A DNA stretch of 64,000 nt from Myxococcota bacterium. Lineage in GTDB: Bacteria > Myxococcota_A > SURF-8. Below the pieces are notes generated by a model. The model had not been told where the DNA came from. It saw nothing but the letters and a program-made list of their open reading frames with translations, and did not search any database. Each line of letters starts with the position of its first letter. The stretch's first letter is position 1. The stretch lies in the NCBI GenBank assembly GCA_965140415.1, contig OZ223209.1, positions 5,600,001 to 5,664,000 of the forward strand, given 5' to 3'. This document shows, piece by piece, positions 3,406-29,533 of the stretch. The position numbers and the translations under genes are program-made.

Positions 3406-3510
3406 GTTCACACCTCTATACTCAGTCAGCTTGACGGTGGTACCCACTACCTAGTCTTATCAAATGGCGACTACGGCGGCAATTCCTTTTTATCAGTGCC
3501 ACCAGTAAAA

Positions 3511-3640
3511 GGTGTATCACAACAAATTGTTACTGGCTAAAAAAGCGGGTGCCATGGGCTAAGCGAAGGGAAACGGAGCTTGCCCATGTAACTCTCGAAC
3601 ACGGGCAATCCTACGGCTTAGCCCGCGCCACCCTGAAATC
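3511..3640. repeat. Hairpin repeat family A copy (core 3547-3633, left end GGTGTATCACAA)
   Basis: Direct sequence similarity to 1768-1929 and 57937-58078. Confidence 0.85.
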
Positions 3641-3802
3641 AGATTGATTTGCTATTCCCTGTAAAATATCCTCCCACCCCGGTAAAGCTAGACGAAGAAA
3701 AAAGTTTGTCTTGCTGAACTTGACACCGTGGCGCTGGTGATGCTACAAAAAAAGACAGAACAATTCTTGTTCGTTTATTCACGATGACGCATGGAGGACA
3801 AG

Positions 3803-4384
3803 ATGGGGAAAAAGTCGCTCGTTTTGTTATTGGCTGTGCTGTTGACACTGACCGCCAGCATCGCTGCCGCAGGAGAGAAGGAAGAAGCCCAGGAGGAAAT
3901 GAAGCGCCTGGAAAAAGTGATGGCCTTTTCCAAGTCTACATTGATTCCGATGATCAACTGTTTCGCTCAGAATCAACCACGCTTGCAGTACCTCAACGAG
4001 CAGAACCCCAACGCCGGACGCGACGCCATCACCAAGCTGGACTATTGCTCCTCGGCTTATCCGGATTCCGTTGAAGACAGCGAAGCCATGGCCCTGAAGC
4101 AGCGGGTATCGGTGCTGTACAGCAAGGATATCCAGGACGGACGCAAGCTGGTCGACATTGCGGATGAATACTACGCTATTCGCGCCGCCTTGCAAGCCGC
4201 CAAAAAGAAAGATCCCGAAAAGATCAAACAACGCGATGCTTTAAAGCAGAAACTGGAAACACAGAAACAGGGTCTGTACAAAGACGCGCTGGAATTCCAG
4301 AAAATCCAGAAGGATTTCAAAACCTGGAGCACGGGCGTGACCAACGCCTTTGTCGAGGCAAGAAAGAAAGCCACCGGCAAATAG
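3803..4384 (+). CDS. Secreted hypothetical helical protein
   Basis: GGAGG RBS, signal peptide MGKKSLVLLLAVLLTLTASIAAA. Confidence 0.7.
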   Translation: MGKKSLVLLLAVLLTLTASIAAAGEKEEAQEEMKRLEKVMAFSKSTLIPMINCFAQNQPRLQYLNEQNPNAGRDAITKLDYCSSAYPDSVEDSEAMALKQRVSVLYSKDIQDGRKLVDIADEYYAIRAALQAAKKKDPEKIKQRDALKQKLETQKQGLYKDALEFQKIQKDFKTWSTGVTNAFVEARKKATGK

Positions 4385-4404
4385 AGCGTTTGAAAGATGC
4401 ATTC

Positions 4405-4432
4405 AAGCCCCGCCTTATTGGCGGGGTTTTTT
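4405..4432 (+). terminator. Rho-independent terminator
   Basis: AAGCCCCGCC-TTATT-GGCGGGGTTTTTT downstream of the stop at 4384. Confidence 0.8.
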
Positions 4433-4465
4433 CTCGGAGACCGGGAAAACGAAGGGAGCCGCTTC

Positions 4466-6460
4466 ATGCATATTCTGTATGAAATCGTGATCGTACTGGC
4501 CCTTGCGGCGATCGTGGTGTTTCTGGGACAGAAACTGCGCCTGCCTGCCATCGTCGGCTTCCTGGTAACGGGAGTGGTTGTCGGACCGTCTTCACTGGGA
4601 CTGATTTCCGACCCGGAAACGGTGGAGATGCTGGCCGAAATCGGCATCGTGCTGTTGATGTTCACCATCGGCATGGAATTCTCGCTGAACCAGCTTTTTT
4701 CCATTCGCAAAACGGTCTTCGCCGGTGGACTGCTACAGGTCTTCCTTACACTGGCCGTCTGTGCCGGTTGGGCGCTGGCAATGGGACGCCCAAGCAACCA
4801 GGCGGTGTTCATCGGCTTGATGCTGGCGATGAGCAGCACGGCCATCGTACTCAAGCTGTTGGCGGAACGAGCGGAAGTCGATACGCCTCATGGCCGGGTG
4901 GCGCTGGGTGTGCTGATCTTTCAGGACATCCTGATCGTGCCTGCCATGCTGGTGGTACCGCTGTTATCCGGCAGCGGTCTGGATGCCGGTGGTCCCATGC
5001 ACCTGCTGCTCGCCAAGGTGCTGCTGGCGGTTCCTTCCGTGTGGCTATTGGCGAAATACATTGTGCCGCTGTCATTGAAGCAGGTCGCCGCGACGCGCAA
5101 CCAGGAACTGTTCATGCTCTCCATTCTGGTGATCGGCTTCGCCATTGCCGGATTATCCGAGGCGATCGGGCTGAAATTGGCGCTGGGCGCGTTTCTGGCC
5201 GGGTTGATCATCTCCGAATCCGAATACAGCCACCAGGCGCTGGGCGCGATCCTGCCCTTTCGCGATGTGTTTTTAAGCTTCTTCTTCATTTCGGTCGGCC
5301 TGCTGCTCGATGTCGGCTTTCTGTTCGATCATCTGGGAACGGTTCTGTTGATCGCGGGCGGAGTGCTGCTATTGAAAACCATTACCGGTGCGGCAGCAAG
5401 TGCGGTGCTTGGGCATCCGCTACGCACGGCGCTATTGGCCGGGCTGGCGCTGTCGCAGGTCGGTGAATTTTCACTGTTGTTGTCGAAAACCGGTCTGGAA
5501 GCAGGCATCATTCAGGCGGATACCTATCAACTCTTTTTAGCCGTGGTCATTCTAACGATGGCCGCTGCTCCGGTGGCGATCGGTCTGGGACCGCGTGTCG
5601 TTGGCAGGGTGGCGACACGCATCAATCACTGGCGTGGTAAGACGCAAACCGAAGCGGAACCGGAAACCGCCGAAAACAATCACCTGCTGATCGTCGGTTT
5701 CGGCTTGAATGGCCGCAATCTGGCCACCGCCGCGAAAAAGTGCGGCATCAGTCACGCCATTATCGAGATGAACCCGGACACCGTTCACAAAATGAAGAAG
5801 GAAGGCATCCCGATTCATTACGGCGACGCCTCCAACGAAATGGTACTGGCGCATGCAGGCGTGAGTGCGGCCAAGGTCGCCGTGATCGCCATCAACGATG
5901 CGGCAGCCACGCGCCGTATCGTCGAACTGCTCAGGCGACGCAATCCCAAGCTGCACATCATCGCACGCACGCGCTTTATGGCCGAAGTCCCCGCGCTCTA
6001 CGGCCTGGGCGCAAACGAAGTGATCCCGGAAGAGTTTGAAACCTCCATTGAAATTTTCGCACGGGTGATGCGGCGCTACCTGATTTCCCGCGAGCAGATC
6101 GAGCGCTTCATTGCCGATATCCGCGCCGATGGCTACCAGATGCTGCGCGCTCCCAGCGGTGCAGCCACTGCGATCAGTCCGCTGCAACCGGTGCTGGAGC
6201 AGGTCGATATCGAATCGGCGCGCGTACAAGCCGACTCCCCTGTGGTCGGGCTGCCCCTCTCCGAGTTGCGCATCCGAACCGATTTCGGCGTGACGGTGCT
6301 TGCCATTCAGCGACAAAACGAGTTGCGCTCCAATCCCGATGGTGAAGAGCGCTTGTGCGCGGGCGACAGCCTGGTGCTGATGGGAAAAAGCGAACAGTTG
6401 CGGGCCTTCACTCAACGGATCGCCGCCTACGAACCTTCCGATTCGGATTCGGACGCATAA
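4466..6460 (+). CDS. Kef-type monovalent cation:proton antiporter (CPA2) with TrkA_N and TrkA_C domains
   Basis: AEIGIVLLMFTIGMEFS, SSTAIVLK, LIFQD, LGAFLAG, LSQVGEFS; IVGFGLNG Rossmann motif, IHYGDAS; C-terminal TrkA_C. Confidence 0.92.
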   Translation: MHILYEIVIVLALAAIVVFLGQKLRLPAIVGFLVTGVVVGPSSLGLISDPETVEMLAEIGIVLLMFTIGMEFSLNQLFSIRKTVFAGGLLQVFLTLAVCAGWALAMGRPSNQAVFIGLMLAMSSTAIVLKLLAERAEVDTPHGRVALGVLIFQDILIVPAMLVVPLLSGSGLDAGGPMHLLLAKVLLAVPSVWLLAKYIVPLSLKQVAATRNQELFMLSILVIGFAIAGLSEAIGLKLALGAFLAGLIISESEYSHQALGAILPFRDVFLSFFFISVGLLLDVGFLFDHLGTVLLIAGGVLLLKTITGAAASAVLGHPLRTALLAGLALSQVGEFSLLLSKTGLEAGIIQADTYQLFLAVVILTMAAAPVAIGLGPRVVGRVATRINHWRGKTQTEAEPETAENNHLLIVGFGLNGRNLATAAKKCGISHAIIEMNPDTVHKMKKEGIPIHYGDASNEMVLAHAGVSAAKVAVIAINDAAATRRIVELLRRRNPKLHIIARTRFMAEVPALYGLGANEVIPEEFETSIEIFARVMRRYLISREQIERFIADIRADGYQMLRAPSGAATAISPLQPVLEQVDIESARVQADSPVVGLPLSELRIRTDFGVTVLAIQRQNELRSNPDGEERLCAGDSLVLMGKSEQLRAFTQRIAAYEPSDSDSDA

Positions 6461-9660: not shown

Positions 9661-11367
9661 CTACATTTCCTCCGGAGTTTCCAGTCCCAGTAAGGTCAAA
9701 CCGCGACGCAACACGACGGCGCAGGCTTGCACCAGTGTCATGCGGGTGGCTCGCATAACCGGATCGGCATCGAGGAAACGATAGCCTTCGATGTTGTATA
9801 CTTTGTTAAACGCCCGGCACAACTCGATCAAATGACGCGCCACGATGGACGGGTCGTAGTCGTCGCAGGCGCGCAGCACGCGCTCGGGAAATTCGCCCAG
9901 CAGCTTTATGACTTCCTTTTCTTCGGCCAGTTCCAGCTTGGAGGCATCCCAGTCCGCCACAGCGTCTTCTAAGGCAGCTTTTCGCAGCATCGAGCAGCAA
10001 CGCGCGTGCGTGTACTGAACGTATACACCGGTTTCGCCCTGAAAATTCAAAATGCGTTCCCACTCGAAGGTCACATCGTTCGTGCGTCGATGAACCAGAT
10101 CGCCGAAGATAATCGCACCCACACCGACCTGTTTCGCCACGGTCTGCTTGTCGGCCAGTTCGGCGTTCTTTTCTTCGATGGCAGCCAGTGAAAGATCGAT
10201 GGCTTTTTTCAGCACGTCTTCCAAAAAGATGACCTGCCCCTTGCGGGTGCTCATCGTTTGATCGGCCAGTTGCAACATGCCGAAAGAGACGTGCGTCATG
10301 CGCTCGGCCCAGGCATTACCCATCTTTTTAAGGACATTGAAAAACTGGTTAAAGTGCATGGACTGCTGATGGGCCACCACGTAAAGCGAACGCGCGAAGT
10401 TGAAACGCTCGAAACGATCGATGGCGGCGGCGATATCGCGCGTGGCATACAAAGTCGCGCCGTCGGCTTTTTTAAGCAGGCAGGGAGGCAGTTTTTCCGC
10501 TTCCAGATCCACCACCAACGCGCCTTTGGAAATCTGCGTTCCGGCGGTTTCATCCACCAGCTTGATAACATCATCGAGTCGATCGCGGTATTTCGACTCG
10601 CCCTCGAAGGAATCGAAACGCACACCCAGCAAGCCGTAAATCCGGTCGAACTCTTTCATACTGATTTCATAGAACAGCTTCCAGAGCTCCAACGCTTCTT
10701 CGTCGTTTTGCTCCATGCGCACGAACCAACCCCGAGCTTCTTCTTCCAAATTGGGATCGTTTTCCGCTTCGGCATGGAACTTCACATAAATATCTAGCAG
10801 ATGTCGAATCTGTTTTTCTTCCAGTTCCTCGCGCGATCCCCAGCGTTTATAGGCGACAATCAGCTTTCCGAACTGCGTTCCCCAGTCGCCCAGGTAATTG
10901 ATGCGCATCGTTTTATAGCCGCGCGCCTGATGCAGATTGGCAATGGCGTTTCCGATCACGGTGCTTCTAATATGGTGAAAAGCGATGGGTTTGGCGATAT
11001 TGGGACTACTGAAATCGAGCACCACCGTTTTTCCGTCGCCCTCTTTGCCTTCGCCGTAAGTCTCGTTTTCACTCAAAACCAGCGGCAGCACGTGTTGCGC
11101 CAATTCCGGTGTTGAAAATCGGAAATTCAAAAACGGTCCTTCCGCTTCCACCGAACTGAAAATCGGCATAGAGGAAAAGCGCGTGGCGAAATCCGCTGCA
11201 ATTTCAGCCGGTTTCTTTTTCAATTCCTTTCCGAAAGGAAAACAGGGTAATGCCAGATCGCCGCGTTCGGGCGTATCGGGAGTTTTAAACAACGTCAGAA
11301 AACGTTCTCTCGGAAAAGAAACTTCACCCGAAAGGGTATCCACAATCTGCTCTCGAATCCACTGCAT
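9661..11367 (-). CDS. argS: Arginine--tRNA ligase
   Basis: DFSSPNIAKPIAFHHIRST (HIGH region), NYLGDWGTQFG, MSTRKG, YVQYTHAR. Confidence 0.97.
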   Translation of the reverse strand: MQWIREQIVDTLSGEVSFPRERFLTLFKTPDTPERGDLALPCFPFGKELKKKPAEIAADFATRFSSMPIFSSVEAEGPFLNFRFSTPELAQHVLPLVLSENETYGEGKEGDGKTVVLDFSSPNIAKPIAFHHIRSTVIGNAIANLHQARGYKTMRINYLGDWGTQFGKLIVAYKRWGSREELEEKQIRHLLDIYVKFHAEAENDPNLEEEARGWFVRMEQNDEEALELWKLFYEISMKEFDRIYGLLGVRFDSFEGESKYRDRLDDVIKLVDETAGTQISKGALVVDLEAEKLPPCLLKKADGATLYATRDIAAAIDRFERFNFARSLYVVAHQQSMHFNQFFNVLKKMGNAWAERMTHVSFGMLQLADQTMSTRKGQVIFLEDVLKKAIDLSLAAIEEKNAELADKQTVAKQVGVGAIIFGDLVHRRTNDVTFEWERILNFQGETGVYVQYTHARCCSMLRKAALEDAVADWDASKLELAEEKEVIKLLGEFPERVLRACDDYDPSIVARHLIELCRAFNKVYNIEGYRFLDADPVMRATRMTLVQACAVVLRRGLTLLGLETPEEM

Positions 11368-19115: not shown

Positions 19116-19919
19116 ATGAATTCGAGCAACCGCATCATTACGTTGCTGACCGATTTCGGTTCCCAAATGGGGTACGTCGGTCAGATGAAGGGTGTGATTC
19201 TGTCGATCAATCCCGGAGCGAGTCTGGTAGATCTAACCCACGAAGCGCCTGCACATCATATTGAAAGCGCGGGAATGATTCTGGAACAGAGTTCCCGCTA
19301 TTTCCCCACCGGCTCGATTCACCTGGCGGTAGTCGATCCGGGCGTGGGTTCCGATAGACCGGCCATTATCGTGACCACCGATCACGGTCTGTTCGTTGGA
19401 CCCGACAACGGTTTGTTCGGTTTTCTGCAAAAAAACAAACTGGTCCGCAGCATCCACCGTATCGTCAACGACCGCTACTTCATGAGCGCCGTTTCCAACA
19501 CCTTCCACGGACGCGACGTCTTCGCGCCGGTCGTGGCCTATCTTTCCCTGGGATACCCGGCGGATGAATTCGGGCCGCCCATCGACACTCTGATTGCCCT
19601 GCCAAGCAAGGGAATTCGTTTGGAAAACGGTGAGTTGATCGGGGAAGTGTTGAATATCGACGTCTTCGGCAACCTGATCACCTCCATTCCATCCGGGGAT
19701 ATCAACGAGTATTACATTCAGCACGCCGACAAGGAAGTATTCGTTTTCTGCGAAGGACAGTACATTCCCATCGCCAATACCTTTTCCGATTTACCGGGGA
19801 AGGAATTGCTGGCTTATGTCGGCTCCGGCAGCCATTTGGAACTGGCGGTCAATCAAGGCAGCGCAAAAGATATGTTGCAGGCGAATATCGGCACACCGGT
19901 CAAACTGGTTTCTATGTAA
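19116..19919 (+). CDS. SAM hydroxide adenosyltransferase / SAM-dependent halogenase family (DUF62)
   Basis: ITLLTDFG, VVDPGVGSDR, FVGPDNG, SNTFHGRDVFAP, IDVFGN. Confidence 0.92.
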   Translation: MNSSNRIITLLTDFGSQMGYVGQMKGVILSINPGASLVDLTHEAPAHHIESAGMILEQSSRYFPTGSIHLAVVDPGVGSDRPAIIVTTDHGLFVGPDNGLFGFLQKNKLVRSIHRIVNDRYFMSAVSNTFHGRDVFAPVVAYLSLGYPADEFGPPIDTLIALPSKGIRLENGELIGEVLNIDVFGNLITSIPSGDINEYYIQHADKEVFVFCEGQYIPIANTFSDLPGKELLAYVGSGSHLELAVNQGSAKDMLQANIGTPVKLVSM

Positions 19920-19972
19920 CCCAAGACTCCACGAAGCTTCATGAACCTTTAGAGAACGCGATGTGGCTCCCG

Positions 19973-20037
19973 GTCGGGTGTCCATGGCAAAGGGTGGCAC
20001 GTGGCCAAGCGGAATGGAATGGAGCTTGCCCGTGTTC
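19973..20037. repeat. Truncated family B repeat (left half)
   Basis: GTCGGGTGTCCATGGCAAA matches the reverse complement of the family B right end; followed by GGGTGGCACG..AAGCGG..GGAGCTTGCCCGTGTTC. Confidence 0.65.
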
Positions 20038-20093
20038 CTGTTTTGGCACATAGACTAGGTATTAATCATTTTTAGCCACAGATCCTGTGATTT

Positions 20094-20222
20094 TGTGCCA
20101 TAGTCTTACGCGATCGAAGATCGTGGAAGGCTGTGTGTCTTCAATAAGTTACACACGGCCTCCCGGAATTTCCATTCCGTGAGACCATGGCACATCATGA
20201 TTACTCGATGGACAGAGATGAG
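20094..20222 (+). repeat. REP doublet / MITE-like family E, copy 1
   Basis: TGTGCCATAGTCT...AGACCATGGCACA inverted ends with two internal hairpins; about 125 bp near-identical to the reverse complement of 26732-26860. Confidence 0.85.
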
Positions 20223-20281
20223 TAATAACTCCTCTAGGCAACGGAAAACAACGGTTTTGAACCCGCACAAACCATGAACGA

Positions 20282-20316
20282 CGGCGGGCTCACGCCTCGC
20301 CGCTACAAGAAGACAT
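20282..20316 (-). repeat. GTAG-type REP (family D)
   Basis: 35-bp identity with 6609-6643. Confidence 0.75.
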
Positions 20317-20432
20317 GCGTACATATTCTCTGATTCCGGGCCATCGATTCGTGCCGAATCGAAGACCCGGGCACCCACATCCAGTAGCGTAAATCGGTCA
20401 ATCGTAACGATAAAAACGCCGTGCGGCTCCGG

Positions 20433-21689
20433 TTATTGTTCGGGGATGCAGACTGCCTGCATATCCGGCGTGCGAGCGCAGGTATAGCCATCCCGGCATA
20501 CCACCTGGAAGCCATCGCAAAGATGCATGCAGTAGTACAGATAGTCGCCGCTGTCCAGTTGCAGACCCGTGCAACGCGAGTAGGGGTTGTTGCATTCGTC
20601 GGTGGAATCACAGGGCTTGCTGCAATAGCCGCGAGAAAACACGCGGTTGTAGGGATTTTCATACTCGGTCAGGCAGACCAGACCGCTCATGCACTGCGCA
20701 TCGGAAGTGCAGGCTCCACCAATGTTGCGTTGGTTTCCGCAGGTATAGGGATCGGGCTGACAGACACCACCGTTACAGATTGCACCATCCGGGCACTCAC
20801 CGTTCTGGCAGGGTGGCGCGCAAAAGGCTTCCTGGAGTTCGTTGTCGTACAGGCAGGCTGAGCCGCTGGCGCAATCCGCGCTGGTCAGGCAGGGATCGCA
20901 GAACGACGTCCAACCCTCGGTTGGCAGGCAACGACCGGTGCCGTAGTTGCAGGTGTAACCTTCAGCGCAGCCGGTATTGGCGCAGTGATCATCAATCGGA
21001 TCGCATACGCCGCTATTGATATTGCATTCGAAGGCCGGAGGGCAGCCGGTGTCGAGGCAGTTTTCCGGGCGCGGCTCGCATTGTCCGGTCTGCGTGTTGC
21101 AGACTTCATCCGCCGAACAGCCGCTGTTGCTGCAATGACTTGGATCGGGTTCGCATAAGCCGCTTTGCGTATTGCAGATCTGGGCGTTTGGGCAGCCGGT
21201 CGTGGTGCAGTCGATCACCGGCAGATCGCCATCGGGAGAGTCGTCACCATCGGGTGCGGTGTCGCCGTCGGGTGCAGTGTCGCCGTCGGGTGCGGTGTCG
21301 CCATCGGGGAACGCATCCCCGTCCGTCGTTCCATCGCCATCGGGGGCAGTGTCGCCATCGATTACCGTGTCACCGTCCGTACTTTGATCGCCGTCGCTGA
21401 GTGGTATATCTCCATCCACGAATGGTATGTCGCCGTCGCTTATTCCGTTGCGAATGCACACGTTCTTTTCTTCATCGCAGCTCATCCCCGTGGGGCAGGC
21501 GATATCGGCGCTGCAATAGGGGCGACAACTGCCATTGATACAGATTGAGCCGGGGTCGCACTCGGCGGAGGTACGGCAAAAGCCCGGATCTTCCATTTCG
21601 ACATCCCCGGCGAAGGGATTGGTCAATGTGGAGGTGCATCCAGCGGCCAGCAATGCAACAGCCAGGATCAATATCTCTATTCGTTTCAC
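20433..21689 (-). CDS. Cysteine-rich lipoprotein with 12 tandem DGD repeats
   Basis: GAGGAG RBS, GTG start, lipobox AAGC; C-x4-C-x4-C repeats; DGDTAP tandem array. Confidence 0.8.
   Translation of the reverse strand: MKRIEILILAVALLAAGCTSTLTNPFAGDVEMEDPGFCRTSAECDPGSICINGSCRPYCSADIACPTGMSCDEEKNVCIRNGISDGDIPFVDGDIPLSDGDQSTDGDTVIDGDTAPDGDGTTDGDAFPDGDTAPDGDTAPDGDTAPDGDDSPDGDLPVIDCTTTGCPNAQICNTQSGLCEPDPSHCSNSGCSADEVCNTQTGQCEPRPENCLDTGCPPAFECNINSGVCDPIDDHCANTGCAEGYTCNYGTGRCLPTEGWTSFCDPCLTSADCASGSACLYDNELQEAFCAPPCQNGECPDGAICNGGVCQPDPYTCGNQRNIGGACTSDAQCMSGLVCLTEYENPYNRVFSRGYCSKPCDSTDECNNPYSRCTGLQLDSGDYLYYCMHLCDGFQVVCRDGYTCARTPDMQAVCIPEQ
21225..21439 (-). repeat. Coding tandem repeat, mostly 18-bp unit (DGDxxx)
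   Basis: GTCGCCGTCGGGTGCGGT-like units encoding DGDTAP and variants. Confidence 0.8.
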
Positions 21690-21810
21690 GTCGTTACTCC
21701 TCTCTTGCGTGCCGATCTCGACGTTCGCGATTTACTAAAATCCAACCCGCACTATAGCCCAGCTTACAATGGGTCGCAAGCCCAATGTGGATGCTTTCGC
21801 GAGAGCGACC

Positions 21811-21850
21811 CTCGAACACGGGCAAGCCTACAGCTTGGTCCGCGCCACCC
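21811..21850. repeat. Partial family A repeat (right half)
   Basis: CTCGAACACGGGCAAGCCTACAGCTTGGTCCGCGCCACCC. Confidence 0.7.
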
Positions 21851-21905
21851 GGAAACCAGGCAGAGTTGCACTGTTTTGCGATGCATCCAATGATTACCCA
21901 GGCTC

Positions 21906-23546
21906 TCACTCGCCCCAGCGAGCTGGGTCCATCAGGATGTCACAGTCTATAAAAACAGCCCCTTGCGGATGCTTCAACGGCGAGGCGCAGTACTCGAACA
22001 GGTTGACGATTTCCGTAGGCCGCACGTAGCTTTTCTCTTTTTCGCCCTGCGCATCGTAGGTGTTGCGATCGGGGATATATTCGTACTCGCCATCCGGCAG
22101 CGCATCCGACCACAGATCCCAGGACTTGAATTCCAGGTAATGGGTTGTCGCCTGGCTGTATTGCTCCATGACGATGCGAGCTTCTTCGGCAGTCAACGGA
22201 ACCCCGTAAGCCGCCGATAGTACAAGCAATTGAGCCAGATCCGGGTACCATTCCGGTACGCCGGGTGCACGCTCGTCGGTGCGGATGCCGTCCAGCCGCG
22301 CGATCAGACCATCTAGCAACTTGCGCGTATGCTCGAAGTCTCCCAGCGCCAGCGACAAAGCCACCGCCGTTTGGTGATAGCCCCAGATCATGTTGCTGGC
22401 CCAGAACTGCGAGTTGATCGCCGCCGTTTCGTAGGCGCCGCCGTCGCCATCGTTGCAGGTATTCTCCAGCGCTTCGCCTTCGGCAAGCAAGGCGGTGGAA
22501 AGTTTGGCATTGCATTCGGCATTGGGGAACAGATCTTCGAAGTTGACGAAGCTGGCGTAGTCCTCGGTGACACCGTTTTCCATGGTGGGAATCCACACCT
22601 CGCCATTGGTCTCTTTGGTGCGGATCTTGTATCCCTGCTCCACAATGTCTTTAGCCAGGGTTCGCATCTGGCGATAGAGCCGGATGGCGTCCTCACTCAC
22701 GGTGTCGTCGGTTGTGGTGCGGATCAGGCGAATGATGGCAATCATCATCCGGTAACCGTAGGGGAAATCGTCTTTACTGCGGCGATTGCGCACGTATATG
22801 TCGCCGTAAGTTGGATTGTTTGGATTGTGAACGTTACTGTGGCGACGCTCTTCGGTGACTTTGCGCATCGGGTCGTAGTCGATACTCACCTGCCGTCCGT
22901 CGTCCAATTCGTAGCTGTGATTGCGATGATAGAATGTGCGCGCCATGATTCCTTCTTGTACCGGATCGTCTTCGCCCCAGCTCATACAGTCGAAGGTCGC
23001 CGAGAAGCCGTGCAGGTAATCCAGCAGCAAATCCCGATACAGCGCATCGTCGCTGCTCTGGTACAGGCCGATGATCGCAGGCAGGATGCGCGTCATCTTG
23101 GCCATGGTGTTGTCCGATCCTTCCAGGTGGCGGAAGGTGACGTGCCTGCCTTCTTTGACGGCCAGGCCATGCGTCCACCAGATTTTGTAGCCCGGCTGTT
23201 CCCATTCGTTGTCATTAGCCAACCCGTGCGAATGCCGCCACACCCAGCGGAAATAGTCGATCTGCTTGTAAAACGCGCCCATGGTGCGGGTGAAATCACT
23301 CACTTCCGCTTCCGTCAAAGCATCGCCTGCCGCATCGCGGGTAACAACCACAGGCAGGCTGCTGTTGAGGACCGGGATGTCTTCCGGCAGTTCCACAGAC
23401 TCCGACTCGGAATCTCCGTTTTCTGAATCGACGAGATCGGTATCTCCGTTCATGCAGATGTAATCATCACCCGAACAGGAAGGCAGCATAAACAAGCAAG
23501 CGAGCGCAAGCAACAGGGGTACAAAGAGCGAAGTGCGCAGGAACAT
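21906..23546 (-). CDS. Lipoprotein of unknown function
   Basis: GGAGG RBS before MFLRTSLFVPLLLALACLFMLPSC; long open frame. Confidence 0.7.
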   Translation of the reverse strand: MFLRTSLFVPLLLALACLFMLPSCSGDDYICMNGDTDLVDSENGDSESESVELPEDIPVLNSSLPVVVTRDAAGDALTEAEVSDFTRTMGAFYKQIDYFRWVWRHSHGLANDNEWEQPGYKIWWTHGLAVKEGRHVTFRHLEGSDNTMAKMTRILPAIIGLYQSSDDALYRDLLLDYLHGFSATFDCMSWGEDDPVQEGIMARTFYHRNHSYELDDGRQVSIDYDPMRKVTEERRHSNVHNPNNPTYGDIYVRNRRSKDDFPYGYRMMIAIIRLIRTTTDDTVSEDAIRLYRQMRTLAKDIVEQGYKIRTKETNGEVWIPTMENGVTEDYASFVNFEDLFPNAECNAKLSTALLAEGEALENTCNDGDGGAYETAAINSQFWASNMIWGYHQTAVALSLALGDFEHTRKLLDGLIARLDGIRTDERAPGVPEWYPDLAQLLVLSAAYGVPLTAEEARIVMEQYSQATTHYLEFKSWDLWSDALPDGEYEYIPDRNTYDAQGEKEKSYVRPTEIVNLFEYCASPLKHPQGAVFIDCDILMDPARWGE

Positions 23547-23702
23547 CGGTAAACCTCCGGCTTTTTTGACTGTACGGCATACGAGCGACGCCGGAACTAT
23601 AGCAGGGAAAACACTTGGAAAACAACGAACTTTTCCAGCTTTTCTTGCACCACGGACCTTGCTGTTGCATACTATGGCAATAATGAAACCGCACATGGAG
23701 GG

Positions 23703-24368
23703 ATGATGTACCTGCCCGATTCAAACGTGCTCCGTCACGATGGCAAAGCGCTGGGTTCCCGGCATGTGTTCTTTACCGAACCGCCGGAGGAGATCGGCCA
23801 GTTGATCAGCGCCCAGAGTGATTTGTCGGCCAAGGATAACCGCAATTACAGCATCGGGCAGCGCCTGTTCAACTGCCTGATTCAAGGGGTGTGGTCGGCG
23901 GGTCTGATTGCAGCGCTTATTTTTGTTGTCGGCGAGCCTTTCGATTCCGCACCGGCCATAGCCTTACTGACGACGATCCCGCTCTTTCTGATGGCGCGCG
24001 CTTACTTCAAAACGCTGCTCAGTGGTTGCTGCACCTACGTTGGAGAACTGGGCGTTTCCCGTCATCACATTTTCGGTCGCACCGACAGTCCCGTGCGCTC
24101 CTCGATTCTGCAATTCAAGGATGCCGAACGCATGACCTTTTCCGAGTCGCGTAAAGGGCAGCGGGGATCGACGCTTAGCGAGTGGCTGTGGCAGTATCCG
24201 CAGGAAAAGGAAAACGGCGGGAAGATCGAGGGCTTTTATCGCATTCTCGCCTATCCGCGCAGCCGCGAGGAAGAACCCCGCGCCACGCTGGACGACTATT
24301 TTTTCGGCGTACAGGCCGAAAAAGCCTGGAAGGCTTTCGAGGAAAAGCGGCAGGCAATGGCTGGATAG
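23703..24368 (+). CDS. Hypothetical membrane protein (2 TM)
   Basis: GGAGG RBS; two hydrophobic segments. Confidence 0.6.
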   Translation: MMYLPDSNVLRHDGKALGSRHVFFTEPPEEIGQLISAQSDLSAKDNRNYSIGQRLFNCLIQGVWSAGLIAALIFVVGEPFDSAPAIALLTTIPLFLMARAYFKTLLSGCCTYVGELGVSRHHIFGRTDSPVRSSILQFKDAERMTFSESRKGQRGSTLSEWLWQYPQEKENGGKIEGFYRILAYPRSREEEPRATLDDYFFGVQAEKAWKAFEEKRQAMAG

Positions 24369-24471
24369 AAAATCATTCCTCGATTGTTGATTAATGTATA
24401 TTTATTTGGCAGTATGATCCTACATTCAAATACGAAACCGGAAGAAATCCATAGCAAAAGGCGAGTAAGCG

Positions 24472-26676
24472 ATGGGGACCAAACAGGCGAAGGCTGGGCT
24501 TAAAACGATCAAGGCGGATGAATTCGTTCGCCGCATCAAAGCAGATATGGACAACGACGATGATTTCCGGCTGACATTTTTCCTGGGCGCCGGTTGCTCC
24601 CGATCTTCCGGTGTTCCGGTATCCAGCGAACTGGTTACACAGCATTGGCTGCCCCGATTGAAGTATCGTCGAACTGGTAGCAGAGAGGATGCAACCGAAT
24701 GGGCGAAAACGGAAATCGAAGGCTTCGATGCCAACAATCCGGGCGCATCCTACGCAACGGTGATTGATGATCTGTATCCTCGGCCTTATCAAAAGCAAAG
24801 TGAGATCGAACGACTGGTCGGTAACAAAAATCCCGGTTTCGGCTACGCCACCTTGGCACAACTGATATCCCACGGAAAATACGGGCCGAAATGCAACGTG
24901 ATTTTAACCACGAATTTCGATGACATGGTGGCCGATGCCCTGTATTTGTATACCCAAAAAAGACCGTTGCTGATTCATCACGAATCGTTGGCAGGCTTCG
25001 TCAAGGTTAGCAGTTCGCGTCCGGTCTGCATCAAGATTCATGGCGATGCACACCTGCCCAACGCCAAGCATACAGAGAAAGATACCAAAGACTTGGATCC
25101 TAGTATCAAAGAAGCCATGAAAAATATCCTGTGCGAGTCGGGCTTGGTGTTTTTGGGCTATGGAGGGAATGACCGCAGTGTCGCGTCGATGCTGAAACAA
25201 CTTCCCGAAGGCGAGCCGCATTGGGGCGTTTATTGGGTTAACGATGTTTTACCCGGTCAGGAGCTAAGGAAATGGCTGGAAGAGGTCAAAGCCATCTGGG
25301 TCCAACAAAAAGATTTCGACGAACAGATGTATTTTTTTTACGAGCAGTTTGGATTCGAACGTCCCAGTGATAAACGCTTCAAACAGATATTTGAAAGTTA
25401 TGATAAAACACAAAGGGAATTGGCAGAACGTGCAAAGGAAAACCCGGAATTGCAAAATGCAATTAAAGTGGAAGGAGACCATTTCGAGTTCAAAAACGCG
25501 TTTGCCGCTATTATGGCAGCAAATGCAGAAGAAAAGGAAAACCCGGAAAAAGCACAAAAGATCTACGAAGCGGCAACGCAGAAGTTTCCCAAGGATGCAG
25601 CCTTGCTTGGAAACTTTGCACGTTTCCTACATGACATCCGCAAAAAATTCGATCAAGCGGAAAAATACTACCAAAAAGCCCTGGAAGCCGAGCCGACACA
25701 TGCAATTTACCTGGGAAACTATGCAGCGTTTTTACATACTATTCGTAAAGATTTCAACCGGGCGGAAGAATACTATAAGAAAGCCCTGGAAGCCGATCCA
25801 ACATATGCCATAGCCCTGGGAAACTATGCTGTCCTTTTAAAAGACATCCGCAAGGATTTCGATAAGGCAGAAGAGTACTACCTAAAAGCCCTGGAAGCCG
25901 ATCCGACAGATGCTACCAATCTGGGCAACTATGCAATTTTCTTGAAGAACATCCGTAAAGATTTCGACCAGGCGGAAAAATACTATAAGAAAGCCCTGGA
26001 AGCCGATCCGACACATGCTACCAATCTGGGCAACTATGCTCTTTTTCTAGATGATATCCGTAAAGATTTCGACCGGGCAGAAGAATACTACCAGAAAGCC
26101 CTGCAAGTCGATCCCACACATGCTACCAATCTGGGCAACTATGCAATTTTCTTGAAGAACATCCGTAAAGATTTCGACCAGGCGGAAAAATACTATAAGA
26201 AAGCCCTGGAAGCCGATCCGACACATGCTACTAACCTGGGAAACTATGCCCTCTTCTCAAGTGATATCCGCAAGGACTTCGACCGGGCGGAAAAATACTA
26301 TAAAAAGGCTCTGAAAGCGGATCCGACATATGCCATTGCTCTGGGAAATTATGGAGGATTTCTACTGCAACAGGGTAAGCATGAAGGATTCGACTATGTA
26401 AATCGTGCCTTAGAAGGCGATGGTGAAGAAAGCTTAAAACTCGAATGTCATTTCTATCTTTACGCACACAGTGAGCAGCCGGAACTGCGGGAGAAAAACC
26501 TTCAGGAAGTGATGACATTGTTGGAAAAGGGTGTGCGTTCACCCGGTTGGGATTTATCCGGCAACGTGCAACGTGCCATTGAAGATGGTCACCCGGAGCC
26601 GGAACGCCTGAAGCTGATTGCCGAGATCATTGCAGAGAAGGTTCCTTTGGAAGAATTGCAGAAGCTGGATTCTTAG
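24472..26676 (+). CDS. SIR2-like (SIR2_2) domain protein fused to a TPR repeat array
   Basis: FFLGAGCSRSSGVP, ILTTNFDD, IKIHGD, LVFLGYGGND; seven 35-aa KDFD.AE.YY.KALEADPT.A..LGNYA..L..IR units. Confidence 0.9.
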   Translation: MGTKQAKAGLKTIKADEFVRRIKADMDNDDDFRLTFFLGAGCSRSSGVPVSSELVTQHWLPRLKYRRTGSREDATEWAKTEIEGFDANNPGASYATVIDDLYPRPYQKQSEIERLVGNKNPGFGYATLAQLISHGKYGPKCNVILTTNFDDMVADALYLYTQKRPLLIHHESLAGFVKVSSSRPVCIKIHGDAHLPNAKHTEKDTKDLDPSIKEAMKNILCESGLVFLGYGGNDRSVASMLKQLPEGEPHWGVYWVNDVLPGQELRKWLEEVKAIWVQQKDFDEQMYFFYEQFGFERPSDKRFKQIFESYDKTQRELAERAKENPELQNAIKVEGDHFEFKNAFAAIMAANAEEKENPEKAQKIYEAATQKFPKDAALLGNFARFLHDIRKKFDQAEKYYQKALEAEPTHAIYLGNYAAFLHTIRKDFNRAEEYYKKALEADPTYAIALGNYAVLLKDIRKDFDKAEEYYLKALEADPTDATNLGNYAIFLKNIRKDFDQAEKYYKKALEADPTHATNLGNYALFLDDIRKDFDRAEEYYQKALQVDPTHATNLGNYAIFLKNIRKDFDQAEKYYKKALEADPTHATNLGNYALFSSDIRKDFDRAEKYYKKALKADPTYAIALGNYGGFLLQQGKHEGFDYVNRALEGDGEESLKLECHFYLYAHSEQPELREKNLQEVMTLLEKGVRSPGWDLSGNVQRAIEDGHPEPERLKLIAEIIAEKVPLEELQKLDS
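25642..26376 (+). repeat. Seven 105-bp coding tandem repeats (TPR)
   Basis: High nucleotide identity between units; 25910-26021 identical to 26120-26231. Confidence 0.9.
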
Positions 26677-26701
26677 ACTTCGTGAGAATGAAACCCAAAA
26701 C

Positions 26702-26730
26702 CTGGACCCCCGCCTGCGCGGACAATGACG
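26702..26730. repeat. Degenerate CGTC-type REP
   Basis: CTGGACCCCCGCCTGCGCGGACAATGACG resembles the ...CCCGCCTGCGCGGG.ATGACG REP class. Confidence 0.45.
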
Positions 26731-26731
26731 T

Positions 26732-26860
26732 CTCATTTCTGTCCATCGAGAACTCACGATGTGCCATGGTCTCACGGAATGGAAATTCCGGGAGCCCGTG
26801 TGTAACTCATTGAAGACACACAGTCTTCCACGATCTTCGATCGCGTAAGACTATGCTACA
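26732..26860 (-). repeat. REP doublet / MITE-like family E, copy 2 (inverted relative to copy 1)
   Basis: Reverse complement matches 20094-20222. Confidence 0.85.
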
Positions 26861-26914
26861 CATTCTTAAATTCGTGTCTAAAACCGCTCTAGATAACCAA
26901 GCAACACCGATGAA

Positions 26915-27787
26915 CTACGCTTCCCCGGCTTTCTTGCGGGCGATGGTGGCGAAGGTGTTCTCGACGTTGAAACGTTTACTGTACTTCTGAAATACGCCGT
27001 TCTGTACGCTGCAATAGCGGATGATTTCGGTCTCGAAATCATTGCGTTCCAAAAGTTCCTGAATGGCGTCCTGATCCACGCCATTGCGAACGATGTGGTA
27101 TTCCGCGTTGTCCTTTGCCGAATCCTCGTAGTACACGCCGAACTTGTGCCGGATGCGTCGGCCAATGCCTCCCAACACACCGATTGGACTAAGGCGCGGA
27201 ATGCGCCACGACAGGTAAGCCATTTCCCCGTAAATCCGGGTGGTCTTCGTCAGGCCGTCGTATCGCATGGGATCCTGGAAGGTGAAAATGATTCCACCGG
27301 GGGCCAGGCAATCGAAGGTTTGTTCGATAAAGCCAAGGTAGTCCGGAATGTGATGCAAAAACGAATTGATCACGACAATGTCGTATTTCCCGTTCAGCTC
27401 ATTCATCACGGCATCGGCGCAGCCGCAATGAACATCCAGCCGCTCGCAGAATCGCGCGCACTTTTTCTGTAAGTTGGCAAGCTGGCTTTTGGAAATATCC
27501 ACCGCCGTAACTTCCCCACCCAGTTCGAGAAAGGGTAACGTCGCGCTGCCTTCGCCAGCCCCTAGATCGAGCACTCTCGGACGTCGCCCATCCTGCATGG
27601 CAAGATCGATGACCCGTACGCACAGTTCCCCGTAAAGATGACGCAACGACGAATGCTTGATGTGGGGAGCGCCGTCGACATAGCGGCGGGTCGCTTCGCC
27701 CGTATAGATTTCCTTATTGGCCATGGAGGCTATTCTTCCAACTCGTTCGTCCATCTGTTCCTCCTCCATAATTTCGATTGCTTTCAT
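26915..27787 (-). CDS. Class I SAM-dependent methyltransferase
   Basis: VLDLGAGEG, VTAVDIS, YDIVVINSFLHHIPD, LAPGG. Confidence 0.88.
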   Translation of the reverse strand: MKAIEIMEEEQMDERVGRIASMANKEIYTGEATRRYVDGAPHIKHSSLRHLYGELCVRVIDLAMQDGRRPRVLDLGAGEGSATLPFLELGGEVTAVDISKSQLANLQKKCARFCERLDVHCGCADAVMNELNGKYDIVVINSFLHHIPDYLGFIEQTFDCLAPGGIIFTFQDPMRYDGLTKTTRIYGEMAYLSWRIPRLSPIGVLGGIGRRIRHKFGVYYEDSAKDNAEYHIVRNGVDQDAIQELLERNDFETEIIRYCSVQNGVFQKYSKRFNVENTFATIARKKAGEA

Positions 27788-27967
27788 CCTTTACTGTTGT
27801 AACACATCGTTTTTATTTTGGGTATCCTAATTATTCGATTCGATGCAGCAAGTAGGGAACCGAACGGAAACGACCTTTGACAAAGCGCAGATAATAAGAA
27901 AAGCACCTCAACCACCCGAACACCCAAGAGATTGGTTGCTATTTTCCGCTTTCTGGATCGATTTTTT

Positions 27968-28125
27968 TCACTCTTCTCCAGTGTGTGGGTGATAGCGGTA
28001 GAAATTGACCGAGCCGGAACCGTAGCTCACACGTGGCAGATCTATTTTCTTTAATAATTCCATGCGTGTAGTTAACCCTGCGTCGAAAAACAACCTGTAA
28101 TCCAAGGTGAATGCGCTTTCATAGT
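27968..28125 (-). pseudogene. Possible C-terminal remnant of a gene interrupted by the REP/IS110
   Basis: Open frame YYESAFTLDYRLFF...GEE* beginning at the IS right junction, with no start of its own. Confidence 0.3.
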
Positions 28126-28140
28126 AGCGACTGTTATTAA

Positions 28141-29282
<1,142 letters not shown>

Positions 29283-29298
29283 AAAGGGATAATACAAG

Positions 29299-29357
29299 GT
29301 CGATCAGATTTTCTGACCGACAATCCAATTCATGTCGGACAGAAAATTTGTCCGACA
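29299..29357. repeat. GTAG REP doublet (family C), interrupted by IS110
   Basis: GTCGATCAGATTTTCTGACCGAC...ATGTCGGACAGAAAATTTGTCCGACA; its GT(AG) head is displaced to 28124-28127. Confidence 0.88.
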
Positions 29358-29533
29358 TGCCCGGCTGCCGCGATGTTGCGCGCCAGTACCAGGTAAAAGG
29401 CAGCGTCATCGGGAATGAATTGCGAAAACATCCATTCCACCGGTTGGGCGATCATGCCGAAGCGCAGCAGTAACCCGATTGAAATCACACCGACCACAGC
29501 CCAGTCGTGCCAACGTGCCGCAGGATTGGTCAT
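29330..29533 (-). pseudogene. N-terminal fragment of a GT-C/ArnT-like membrane protein truncated at the REP
   Basis: GAGG RBS; TM helix ending LLLRF, then IPDDAAFYLVLARNIAAAGH, then the frame runs into the REP and stops. Confidence 0.5.

Follow-up and report, generated by a model that had tools for sequence, protein, structure and literature searches.

A SIR2-TPR protein with a groove-variable repeat array, a candidate single-protein sensor-NADase

Two kinds of known receptors are relevant to the protein described here: single-protein sensor-NADases, such as DSR2 and the TIR-TPR proteins, and STAND receptors that sense through repeats, for instance Avs proteins and NLRs. DSR2 of Bacillus subtilis (PDB 8z18, 8wyb) is one protein that combines an N-terminal SIR2 NADase with a C-terminal helical solenoid binding a phage protein and has no NTPase; its sensor comprises a MID domain and a HEAT-like CTD (~700 aa), and to our knowledge no modular repeats of varying number occur in it. 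It is described as oligomeric and as acting by NAD+ depletion (PMC10981675, PMC11850899). TIR-II of E. coli is reported to be a validated one-protein defence with an NADase-type effector and a TPR domain, only ~30% of its members also carrying an ATPase (PMC11350192). In SPARSA, the Sir2-APAZ protein (PDB 8jkz, 8jl0, 8y80) works with a pAgo and a guide RNA as the sensor, and its catalytic residues N142 and H186 are reported to superimpose on N116 and H135 of yHst2 (PMC11452484). Avs5, or SIR2-STAND (PDB 9jap, 9nc9), has a SIR2 effector, a central STAND NTPase and C-terminal TPR/Sel1-type repeats that are described as sensing a phage protein (PMC12931631). Finally, the TPR, ANK and WD repeats of fungal NLRs (Podospora NWD, HET-E), which are eukaryotic proteins with a NACHT or NB-ARC NTPase, are reported to be highly conserved internally, to be polymorphic in number and to vary at sites on their concave face (PMC4986451); positive selection has also been shown for them.

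The gene analysed here lies in a 64-kb stretch of DNA, referred to below as the window. Its product opens with an immune-type SIR2 domain, continues with seven regular 35-aa TPR units and a degenerate eighth one, and closes with a conserved helical tail; the features are as listed.

24472..26676, + strand: SIR2-TPR gene, intact ORF of 734 aa
24499..25476, + strand: SIR2 domain (SIR2_2, immune-type), ~aa 10-335 (PADLOC, domain model, Foldseek)
24913..24915, + strand: codon of N148 in the TTNFD motif, aligning with catalytic N142 of SPARSA Sir2
25039..25041, + strand: codon of H190 in the IHGD motif, aligning with catalytic H186 of SPARSA Sir2
25498..25596, + strand: N-terminal TPR-like capping helix pair, aa 343-375 (model helices 343-353 and 358-371)
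25597..26331, + strand: seven regular 35-aa (105-bp) TPR units, aa 376-620 (Tandem Repeats Finder, unit HMM, model)
25910..26021, + strand: first copy of a 112-bp exact repeat (unit 4 and the first bases of unit 5)
26120..26231, + strand: the same 112 bp again, corresponding to unit 6 and placed 210 bp farther downstream
26332..26436, + strand: eighth TPR unit, a degenerate cap, aa 621-655, with the LGNYAGFLL...G motif kept family-wide
26437..26673, + strand: conserved C-terminal helical module, aa 656-734, LECxFYxYAH...RSPGW...DGHP (family consensus, model helices)

Pfam recognizes SIR2_2 (PF13289) at aa 143-250 (40.8 bits, cut-off 24.5) together with many TPR families, and an NTPase is absent both among the 25 Pfam families listed for the protein and among its NCBIfam matches. 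The SIR2 domain runs to about aa 335, TPR-like helices begin at aa 343, and no more than ~40 residues lie between the SIR2 fold and the first such helix pair. Nine long TPR-bearing members of the family (1004-1237 aa) were also scanned; they have extra TPRs and still no NTPase. The joining of SIR2 to TPR units in one gene without an NTPase, as put forward in the original prediction, is thus upheld by Pfam, by the predicted model and by the long family members. The C-terminal helical module (aa 656-734) matches no Pfam family, and a search of the ESM Atlas with the C-terminal 95 aa yielded scores of at most 0.81, which is the chance level.

The best PADLOC matches of the SIR2 domain are models of SIR2 proteins associated with short pAgos (Aga_SIR2, E 3.5e-34 over aa 34-333), and among solved structures it is closest in sequence to Sir2 chains of SPARSA (8jkz, 8jl0 and 8in8; E 1.4e-13), with the catalytic pair N148/H190 aligned to N142/H186. 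The residues G39, G41 and S43 of the GAGxS NAD loop, N148 and H190 are invariant in all 60 rows of one family alignment, and H190 is kept at 90% or more in a second one. In a Foldseek search with the SIR2-domain model (pLDDT 88.3, pTM 0.85), the best match was SPARSA 8y80_E (TMq 0.68), followed by DSR2, ThsA, Avs5 and KomC at TMq 0.44-0.56 (DSR2 at 0.47-0.56), every match listed being an antiphage SIR2 protein. VIA-align scored ThsA highest (Z 18.8, rmsd 3.7, 252 aligned), then KomC (Z 17.4) and PsSIR2 (Z 16.7), and gave Avs5 a Z of 15.0; classical Sir2 proteins and sirtuins, at Z 13-15.4 (best 15.4, rmsd 3.5, 216 aligned), scored below ThsA, KomC and PsSIR2. No Cys4 zinc module is seen in the sequence, the sole cysteines being C42, C141, C186, C221 and C660. 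The SIR2 domain is, to judge from its sequence and fold, of the antiphage type with both catalytic residues intact, and its putative role is that of an NADase. Profile, fold and the catalytic Asn and His all fit the proposed NADase-type immune domain.

For the isolated SIR2 domain, a homodimer was predicted with an ipSAE of 0.69, compared to 0.00 for the best of three controls, at least 76% of contacts being common to the runs and the partner pLDDT being at least 79. In calibration, 20 of 30 proteins whose solved structures are same-chain pairs attained the mark used here, as did one of 23 solved as single chains. The homodimer score may merely reflect likeness to similar SIR2 assemblies that have already been solved.

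The protein differs from each of the described systems. The APAZ part of the SPARSA protein is missing, as only positions 8-322 of the 558-position profile were matched and the C-terminal part is TPR; no Argonaute gene was found nearby, and the sensor is a TPR array instead of a guide RNA with pAgo. PADLOC includes a DSR2 model, and no DSR family was among the PADLOC matches of the protein at E 0.1 or better. The whole-model match to DSR2 (8z18_A) is poor (TMq 0.28, rmsd 21), and where DSR2 has a MID domain and a HEAT-like CTD this protein has a regular TPR array. Unlike Avs5, it lacks the STAND NTPase, and unlike TIR-II it carries SIR2 as the effector. The PADLOC candidate PDC-S65 has a related SIR2 domain (E 7.7e-19), but only part of the profile is covered (aa 37-385 align with positions 36-382 of 592); a true full-length PDC-S65 member is present elsewhere in the genome (E 1.8e-204, positions 16-588 of 592) and has no TPR. 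The checks proposed with the original prediction, a PADLOC search and structure prediction, thus recovered an immune-type SIR2 domain and a TPR superhelix, whereas no PADLOC model was found to cover the whole protein. Our literature search, with subscription journals outside its coverage, found no NTPase-less SIR2-TPR protein described among the papers listed and no match to the exact terms SIR2-TPR (anywhere in a word) or PDC-S65.

Tandem Repeats Finder reported a 105-bp period with 6.6 copies at 25636-26333 and also a 210-bp period with 82% matches, and the unit HMM placed eight units starting at aa 376, 411, 446, 481, 516, 551, 586 and 621. The seven 105-bp TPR units claimed initially are therefore confirmed by both the period and the HMM, with the degenerate eighth unit to be added. 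In the full model (pLDDT 89.9, and 97-98 across the array) helix A spans unit positions 1-15 and helix B positions 18-31, and by fold the model is best matched by the TPR superhelix of OGT and by consensus TPR proteins. The units carry L4, Y7, A8, L11, A21, Y25, A28 and P33 and, relative to the TPR pattern W4-L7-G8-Y11...A20-F24-A27-P32, have one extra residue in a loop; in Pfam, TPR_1 positions 15-34 match unit positions 16-35.

The segments 25910-26021 and 26120-26231 are identical in 112 of 112 bases, with no extension possible on either side, and since unit identity is about 80%, such an exact run is not due to chance. In the contigs of one sequencing run, the unitig over 25910-26008 had a depth of 88, compared to 44-46 in the adjoining unique unitigs; at this two-fold depth the duplicate is not an assembly artefact. 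The perfect duplication noticed at the outset is therefore real. The description of the array as homogenized holds for units 4 and 6, which are identical in DNA, but every other pair of the seven regular units is 71-84% identical, so that the array of this gene is not globally homogenized; the synonymous difference at scaffold codons among its units is 0.47. The array carries one recent conversion or duplication of one unit. Judged by their DNA, most units of the gene are old, so recent recombination within this copy was not frequent. Alternative repeat-number joints in the array were not found in the contigs of two runs, in which rare variants are dropped.

The variable columns listed in the original prediction correspond to unit positions 35 (H/Y/D), 2-3, 9-10 and 12-13. 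Within-protein entropy, calculated for 18 family members with at least six similar units, peaks at positions 2, 3, 9, 12, 13 and 35 (1.5-1.9 bits, compared to 0.2-1.0 elsewhere), and the same pattern was obtained for 43 proteins with 260 units. The positions described as canonical concave or ligand-contact positions of TPRs are 2, 5, 9, 12, 13, 33 and 34, with Asn6 touching the ligand backbone (PMC1261162). Five of the six hypervariable helix-A columns (2, 3, 9, 12, 13, 35) are canonical concave-face positions. Residue changes are thus indeed clustered at a few columns, and the possibility raised earlier that the variable residues lie outside the groove is not favoured by the canonical positions. 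The helix-B columns are uniform inside a protein and differ between proteins of the family.

In 20 non-overlapping pairs of close relatives the mismatch rate rose from 0.077 in SIR2 to 0.187 in the TPR scaffold and to 0.502 at the hypervariable columns, the groove columns diverging ~6.5 times faster than the enzyme domain. At the hypervariable columns dN/dS above one was found neither among the units of the gene (pN/pS 0.48, with pS near saturation) nor in four orthologue pairs (pN/pS 0.0-0.58, with few sites, ~29 in each). Comparison of relatives for repeat number and per-column selection, as suggested with the original prediction, therefore showed variation in number, and pN/pS values below one at few or nearly saturated sites.

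The family is large and taxonomically scattered across many bacterial and archaeal phyla, with 643 word-index matches and 412 clusters of the SIR2 head at 50% identity (E 1e-30 or better); the closest relative of the present gene in the databases searched is just 49-50% identical. The number of repeat units per member ranges from one to 13. Twenty of 25 pairs with SIR2 identity of at least 90% differ in raw length, and in eight of these the difference is an exact multiple of 35 aa; in all four close pairs aligned in full the indels are clean, in register and 35 or 70 aa long. Exact in-register DNA repeats of at least 40 bp are present in 21 of 63 homologues, and of at least 100 bp in six of 63. 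Of the 260 units, 60% have their closest counterpart at scaffold positions within the same protein, compared to 2.2% expected by chance, which indicates concerted evolution. Invariance across relatives, which was to count against the proposal, is not what we observed in the family, whose repeats vary both in number and in groove residues. Reshuffling of repeats is likewise seen family-wide, in the 35- and 70-aa indels and the exact DNA repeats, but hardly in the present gene with its units at mostly 71-84% identity. The proposed likeness to fungal NLR repeats extends to concerted evolution, repeat-number polymorphism and concave variation, all found across the family, and not to an NTPase switch.

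One member of the clade (P0258) couples the same type of SIR2 to SAVED and GT4-conflict domains. Distant SIR2-TPR relatives were found inside Mu/P2-like proviruses, and 46 relatives, 25-35% identical, are on viral contigs; four of these (L083-L086) were scanned, all having SIR2_2 and TPR, and in L083 the gene is located between phage replication and baseplate genes. Distant SIR2 relatives are also present on eight plasmid records.

The gene has a GC content of 44-50%, compared to 55-60% in its flanks, and is located in a low-GC accessory block beside an IS110 transposase and a MITE-like repeat; the window itself is ordinary chromosome. The neighbouring features are as follows.

23703..24368, + strand: 221-aa ORF, 103 bp upstream of the gene, same strand
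26732..26883, + strand: MITE-like element of ~152 bp, one copy of a dispersed repeat, immediately 3' of the gene
26915..27787, - strand: class I SAM methyltransferase in the accessory block, transcribed convergently to the gene
28143..29108, - strand: IS110-family transposase

A search of 60 relatives with a cut-off of E 1e-20 retrieved no homologue from any of them, and the gene is accessory or mobile. Borders of an island could not be derived from synteny, the orthologues of the left and right flank genes being on different contigs or far apart in five of five relatives. The 221-aa ORF has no match in Pfam, NCBIfam or PADLOC, retrieves only itself among 5.8 billion proteins and was not found in 20 relatives; as it is without relatives and not conserved beside SIR2-TPR homologues, it was rejected as a partner gene. 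A PADLOC mad2 match of the methyltransferase was also rejected as a link to defence, because it covers only the generic core (positions 290-396 of 492). No PIWI/Ago family was detected among the scanned ORFs of the window, the Rfam scan of 19900-29500 had no match up to E 0.01, and neither promoter nor terminator scans exceeded the counts expected from shuffled sequence. That the gene acts as a single-gene system, as proposed, agrees with the lack of a conserved partner gene in 63 related loci. A defence-island setting was not seen for family members: among 150 of the 205 nearest ORFs, in 45 loci, ten ORFs in eight loci look mobile or defence-related (AbiTii, HepT, DUF559, DDE_3 with HTH, TnpB-like, IS200, ParD and a MNT/HEPN-like pair), the remaining neighbours being mostly housekeeping genes (tRNA synthetases, gyrase, ClpXP, Hsp70, EF-G, L2).

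We consider the protein to be, with a probability of roughly 0.55, a single-protein sensor-NADase resembling DSR2 or TIR-TPR proteins, that is, a stand-alone conflict sensor-effector, most likely acting in antiphage defence by abortive infection; here we infer the NADase activity, the ligand, activation by oligomerization and any antiphage effect. The seven regular TPR units would form a superhelix, in which the invariant Asn at unit position 6 would line the concave groove as an Asn ladder gripping the backbone of an extended foreign polypeptide, while the hypervariable positions 2, 3, 9, 12, 13 and 35 would read the side chains of the bound polypeptide. Ligand binding may gather the N-terminal SIR2 domains into dimers or higher assemblies, or re-arrange pre-existing ones, for which tetramerization of the SPARSA Sir2 serves as the mechanistic model; the assembly would align N148 and H190 for NAD+ hydrolysis, as in SPARSA, DSR2, ThsA and Avs5, and the resulting NAD+ depletion would halt the infected cell. 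Specificity would evolve both through whole units being gained, lost or converted and through residue changes at the groove columns.

Alternatively, the protein could be a housekeeping or regulatory NAD-dependent enzyme (protein deacylase, ADP-ribosyltransferase or metabolic NADase) whose TPR recruits cellular clients and whose variation reflects differing host clients. The mostly housekeeping neighbourhood of the family, with no defence island seen, would suit such an enzyme, as would the good fit of classical sirtuins to the fold and the catalytic Asn and His, which are common to deacylases, as the reported superposition of SPARSA on yHst2 illustrates (PMC11452484). We nevertheless regard it as unlikely, given the negative search for the gene in 60 of 60 relatives, its low-GC block with IS110 and the MITE-like repeat, the carriage of relatives by proviruses, nearest relatives by sequence and fold that are all antiphage SIR2 proteins, no visible Cys4 zinc module, and groove columns that change so much faster than the enzyme domain. 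It is very improbable that the repeat features themselves are an artefact of a mis-assembled array, or chance in the form of ordinary TPR variability: repeats are prone to assembly errors and run contigs do break inside the array, but the duplicated unitig has two-fold depth, the ORF is intact with a high-confidence model across the array, and the column pattern recurs in 43 independent proteins.

A role in conflicts other than antiviral ones, whether in kin recognition or allorecognition, in sensing plasmids to counter them or as an addiction-type death switch, would have the groove read polymorphic proteins of other cells or elements, in the manner of fungal het-type NLRs. The family matches the signature reported for fungal NLRs (internal conservation, repeat-number polymorphism, concave variation; PMC4986451), SPARSA, with the closest Sir2, is reported to target plasmids as well (PMC11452484), and eight plasmid records carry distant SIR2 relatives. 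Neither a partner nor a polymorphic target locus was found adjoining the gene, however, and the provirus-borne relatives occupy usual sites of phage accessory genes, which superinfection exclusion fits better. Although the data at hand do not separate such a role from antiphage sensing, we think it quite unlikely, and antiphage sensing remains our preferred reading.

More tentatively, it is possible, though doubtful, that this family, widespread among prokaryotes, has come to make receptors in the style of fungal NLRs, by shuffling of TPR units and groove substitutions along an Asn ladder, without the NTPase switch, so that a peptide-reading array would directly gate an NADase. If this is true, specificity could be read off approximately, one unit at a time, and re-programming as in a designed repeat protein would be possible.

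In summary, the family joins the repeat sensor of STAND receptors to the switch-less simplicity of single-protein sensor-NADases, and this large family falls outside the PADLOC models used. Across many phyla it shows repeats that change in number and evolve in concert, with hypervariable columns in the groove, features so far documented mainly in fungal NLRs. If its members are immune receptors, they would provide a compact model of how recognition diversity arises from repeat arrays in prokaryotes and a candidate scaffold for programmable peptide sensing with an easily measured output, the loss of NAD+.

The ORF at 24472-26676 (+) is intact and encodes a 734-aa product, in which Pfam identifies SIR2_2 with 40.8 bits over aa 143-250 (cut-off 24.5) and a long series of TPR families. 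An NTPase family is absent from the 25 Pfam families listed for this protein, and none was added by NCBIfam. The AlphaFold2 model, built from a 60-row family alignment, is of high confidence (mean pLDDT 89.9, pTM 0.65). These three sources bear out the original prediction that the SIR2 and TPR parts are joined without an NTPase, and the observation as a whole, a SIR2-TPR gene with a repeat array and a duplicate, is confirmed. In the DNA, Tandem Repeats Finder reports a period of 105 bp in 6.6 copies and a further period of 210 bp. The protein is organized as follows:

up to ~aa 335, alpha/beta SIR2 domain (AlphaFold2 model)
aa 327-335, short linker of low confidence (pLDDT <50 in the model)
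aa 343-666, unbroken series of helix pairs (model)
after aa 666 to the C-terminus, four further helices (model)
starts at aa 376, 411, 446, 481, 516, 551, 586 and 621, eight 35-aa units, the eighth degenerate (unit HMM made from the gene)

The enzymatic head resembles antiphage SIR2 domains. The top PADLOC matches are the SIR2 portions of short-Argonaute-associated Sir2-APAZ proteins (E 3.5e-34, aa 34-333), and the closest solved structures by sequence are SPARSA Sir2 chains (E 1.4e-13). N148 (TTNFD) and H190 (IHGD) align with SPARSA N142 and H186, which the SPARSA study shows to be catalytic and brought into catalytic alignment only upon Sir2 tetramerisation (PMC11452484); neither these two residues nor the GAGxS loop vary among the 60 family rows. 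When aa 1-345 are modelled on their own (pLDDT 88.3, pTM 0.85), the Foldseek matches listed are antiphage SIR2 proteins only: SPARSA (TMq 0.61-0.68), then DSR2, ThsA, Avs5 and KomC. An aligner independent of Foldseek gave Z scores of 18.8 for ThsA, 17.4 for KomC and 16.7 for PsSIR2 versus at most 15.4 for classical sirtuins; since this margin is modest, deacylase-type chemistry would stay compatible with the SIR2 fold taken alone. A SIR2-domain homodimer is predicted with an ipSAE of 0.69 versus 0.00 for the best of three controls (at least 76% of contacts agree between runs, partner pLDDT at least 79). In calibration, 20 of 30 one-chain pairs among solved structures reached the mark used, compared with one of 23 solved single chains. 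As SIR2 assemblies of relatives are already solved, this pass may reflect only likeness to them.

The perfect duplication claimed for the array was reproduced: 25910-26021 and 26120-26231 share 112 of 112 bases, with no extension possible on either side, covering the whole of units 4 and 6 and a few bases of the following unit. In the contigs of the public run holding the locus, unitig depth is 88 at this stretch versus 44-46 in the adjoining unique unitigs, which supports two genomic copies. In DNA, identity between the remaining units is just 71-84%, so that the description of the array as homogenised holds for one unit pair and is overstated for this copy of the gene. Between units, scaffold codons differ by 0.47 at synonymous and 0.063 at non-synonymous sites, while the non-synonymous difference at the six variable columns is 0.40. 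The array is thus old and its scaffold is under purifying selection; a single unit was converted or duplicated recently.

Residue changes cluster at few columns, as predicted: within-protein entropy in the family peaks at unit positions 2, 3, 9, 12, 13 and 35. The register of the unit follows from its packing residues (L4, Y7, A8, L11, A21, Y25, A28 and P33), which fit the canonical TPR pattern with one extra loop residue, and from the match of unit positions 16-35 to Pfam TPR_1 positions 15-34. Magliery and Regan describe canonical positions 2, 5, 9, 12, 13, 33 and 34 as hypervariable, concave-face and ligand-contacting, with Asn6 touching the ligand backbone (PMC1261162). Of the six variable columns here, five (2, 9, 12, 13 and 35, where 35 corresponds to canonical 34) fall within this concave set. 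Asn occupies position 6 throughout the eight units and is the family consensus there as well. By register and this literature, the variable columns probably line the groove, in line with the original proposal.

The family is large and diverse. A word-index search with the SIR2 region considered 4400 candidates, and 643 proteins scored E 1e-3 or better, the best non-self match being only 49-50% identical. When 50%-identity representatives were searched exhaustively, 2947 clusters passed E <=1e-3 and 412 passed E <=1e-30. With few exceptions, the 120 matches listed combine SIR2_2 with TPRs in a length of 400-870 aa; a few (P0004, P0072, P0108 and P0110) have a different, unnamed C-terminal part. 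Ten long members (1004-1237 aa) were scanned, and nine of them carry extra TPRs but likewise lack an NTPase. The tenth, P0258 (1175 aa, SIR2 38% identical), is fused to SAVED and GT4-conflict glycosyltransferase domains, a CBASS-like effector architecture. Relatives are encoded in 90 of 223 candidate stretches of species-representative genomes, from Halobacteria, Methanosarcinales, Heimdallarchaeota, Zixibacteria, Chloroflexota, Verrucomicrobiota, Acidobacteriota, Actinomycetota, Pseudomonadota and others. In a Methanosarcinaceae MAG (L025:8001-11066), two DDE_3-type transposase ORFs (HTH_32 + DDE_3) break the homologue, and at another locus (L007) it is seemingly split, with a separate TPR ORF at 9663-10205.

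The proposed reshuffling of repeats is seen at the level of the family. Units number from 1 to 13, and 115 of the 120 listed proteins have at least one. Units of one protein share a mean identity of up to 0.76 (0.62 in our gene) versus 0.41 for units of different proteins. Compared at scaffold positions, 60% of units have their nearest unit in their own protein versus 2.2% by chance (260 units from 43 proteins, each with at least four good units). Helix-B columns 18, 20, 23, 24, 26 and 31 are uniform inside a protein and different among proteins, the signature of concerted evolution or recent expansion. Length differs in 20 of 25 pairs with SIR2-domain identity of at least 90%, by exact multiples of 35 aa in eight; some proteins recur in more than one of these pairs, and contig ends may have truncated some sequences. 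All four fully aligned close pairs show a single clean in-register gap in the array (35, 35, 70 and 69+1 aa), head and tail being otherwise collinear. Exact in-register DNA repeats of at least 40 bp occur in 21 of 63 homologues from representative genomes, and of at least 100 bp in six. Over 20 non-overlapping pairs (SIR2 identity 85.7-99.4%), mismatch rates are 0.077 (505/6600) for the SIR2 domain, 0.187 for the scaffold and 0.502 for the six variable columns. At the variable columns, pN/pS is 0.48 within the gene and 0.0-0.58 in four orthologue pairs with ~29 non-synonymous sites each, values that do not establish positive selection formally. In two Verrucomicrobiota homologues (L035 and L036, proteins 98.5% identical), the synonymous difference is 0.31 (12/39 sites) in the TPR scaffold versus 0.075 in SIR2; this ~4x excess, based on small numbers, hints at array recombination.

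Arginyl-tRNA synthetase, mevalonate-pathway genes and histidine kinases mark the window as ordinary chromosome. GC drops to 44-50% around the gene versus 55-60% in the flanks. The surroundings of the gene include:

23703-24368 (+), 221-aa ORF on the gene's strand, 103 bp upstream of it and containing a hydrophobic stretch, within the low-GC stretch
26732-26883 (+) and ~20099-20222 (-), dispersed ~152-bp MITE/REP-like repeat, one copy of which is within the low-GC stretch
within the low-GC stretch, class I methyltransferase and IS110 transposase

The 221-aa ORF matches only itself among 5.8 billion proteins and has no family match. The ~152-bp repeat has at least 42 matches in the 5.98-Mb genome, which are 85-96% identical (40 of 90 candidates were scored), a contig depth of 3000-6000 versus ~40 elsewhere, and no matching Rfam family. 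The SIR2-TPR gene was found at E 1e-20 or better in none of 60 relatives (five of the same family, four of the same order and 51 of the same phylum). Neither the 221-aa ORF nor the methyltransferase was found in 20 relatives. The same genome encodes a second SIR2 protein without TPRs (C1:1257285-1259078, L002:1441-3234; 597 aa, 27% identical), a full-length member of the PADLOC candidate family PDC-S65 (E 1.8e-204).

Across 63 related loci there is no conserved neighbour gene, the sole other cluster being antisense ORFs within the gene itself. Only 10 mobile- or defence-like neighbours, in eight loci, occur among 150 of the 205 nearest-neighbour ORFs (45 loci); the family is therefore one of lone, scattered accessory genes and not of defence-island residents, which is the chief evidence against a simple immune reading. 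On the other side, SIR2 relatives with 25-35% identity are found in 46 of 177 candidate stretches of viral contigs, and all four viral-contig proteins scanned (L083-L086) are SIR2_2 plus TPR. One of these genes lies in a Mu/P2-like provirus (L083), with a phage replication gene on one side and genes for DNA circularisation and the baseplate on the other. More distant SIR2 relatives are present on eight plasmid records.

The protein belongs to none of the known systems compared. SPARSA Sir2-APAZ is nearest to its head, but it has no APAZ domain and the window ORFs scanned contain no Argonaute; it also lacks a DSR-type sensor and the STAND NTPase of the Avs5 type, and it matches the PDC-S65 profile only in part. 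No paper using the names "SIR2-TPR" or "PDC-S65" was found in the searchable literature. By analogy, it would work most like DSR2, which combines a SIR2 head with a helical phage-protein-binding sensor and no NTPase, and like E. coli TIR-II, a validated single-protein TIR-TPR system (PMC11350192). Its repeats behave like the TPR, ANK and WD domains of fungal NLRs (PMC4986451), although it has no NOD module. The reading of the protein as a candidate sensor-effector is partly supported, and more firmly at the level of the family, where units are gained and lost and the variable columns map to the putative groove.
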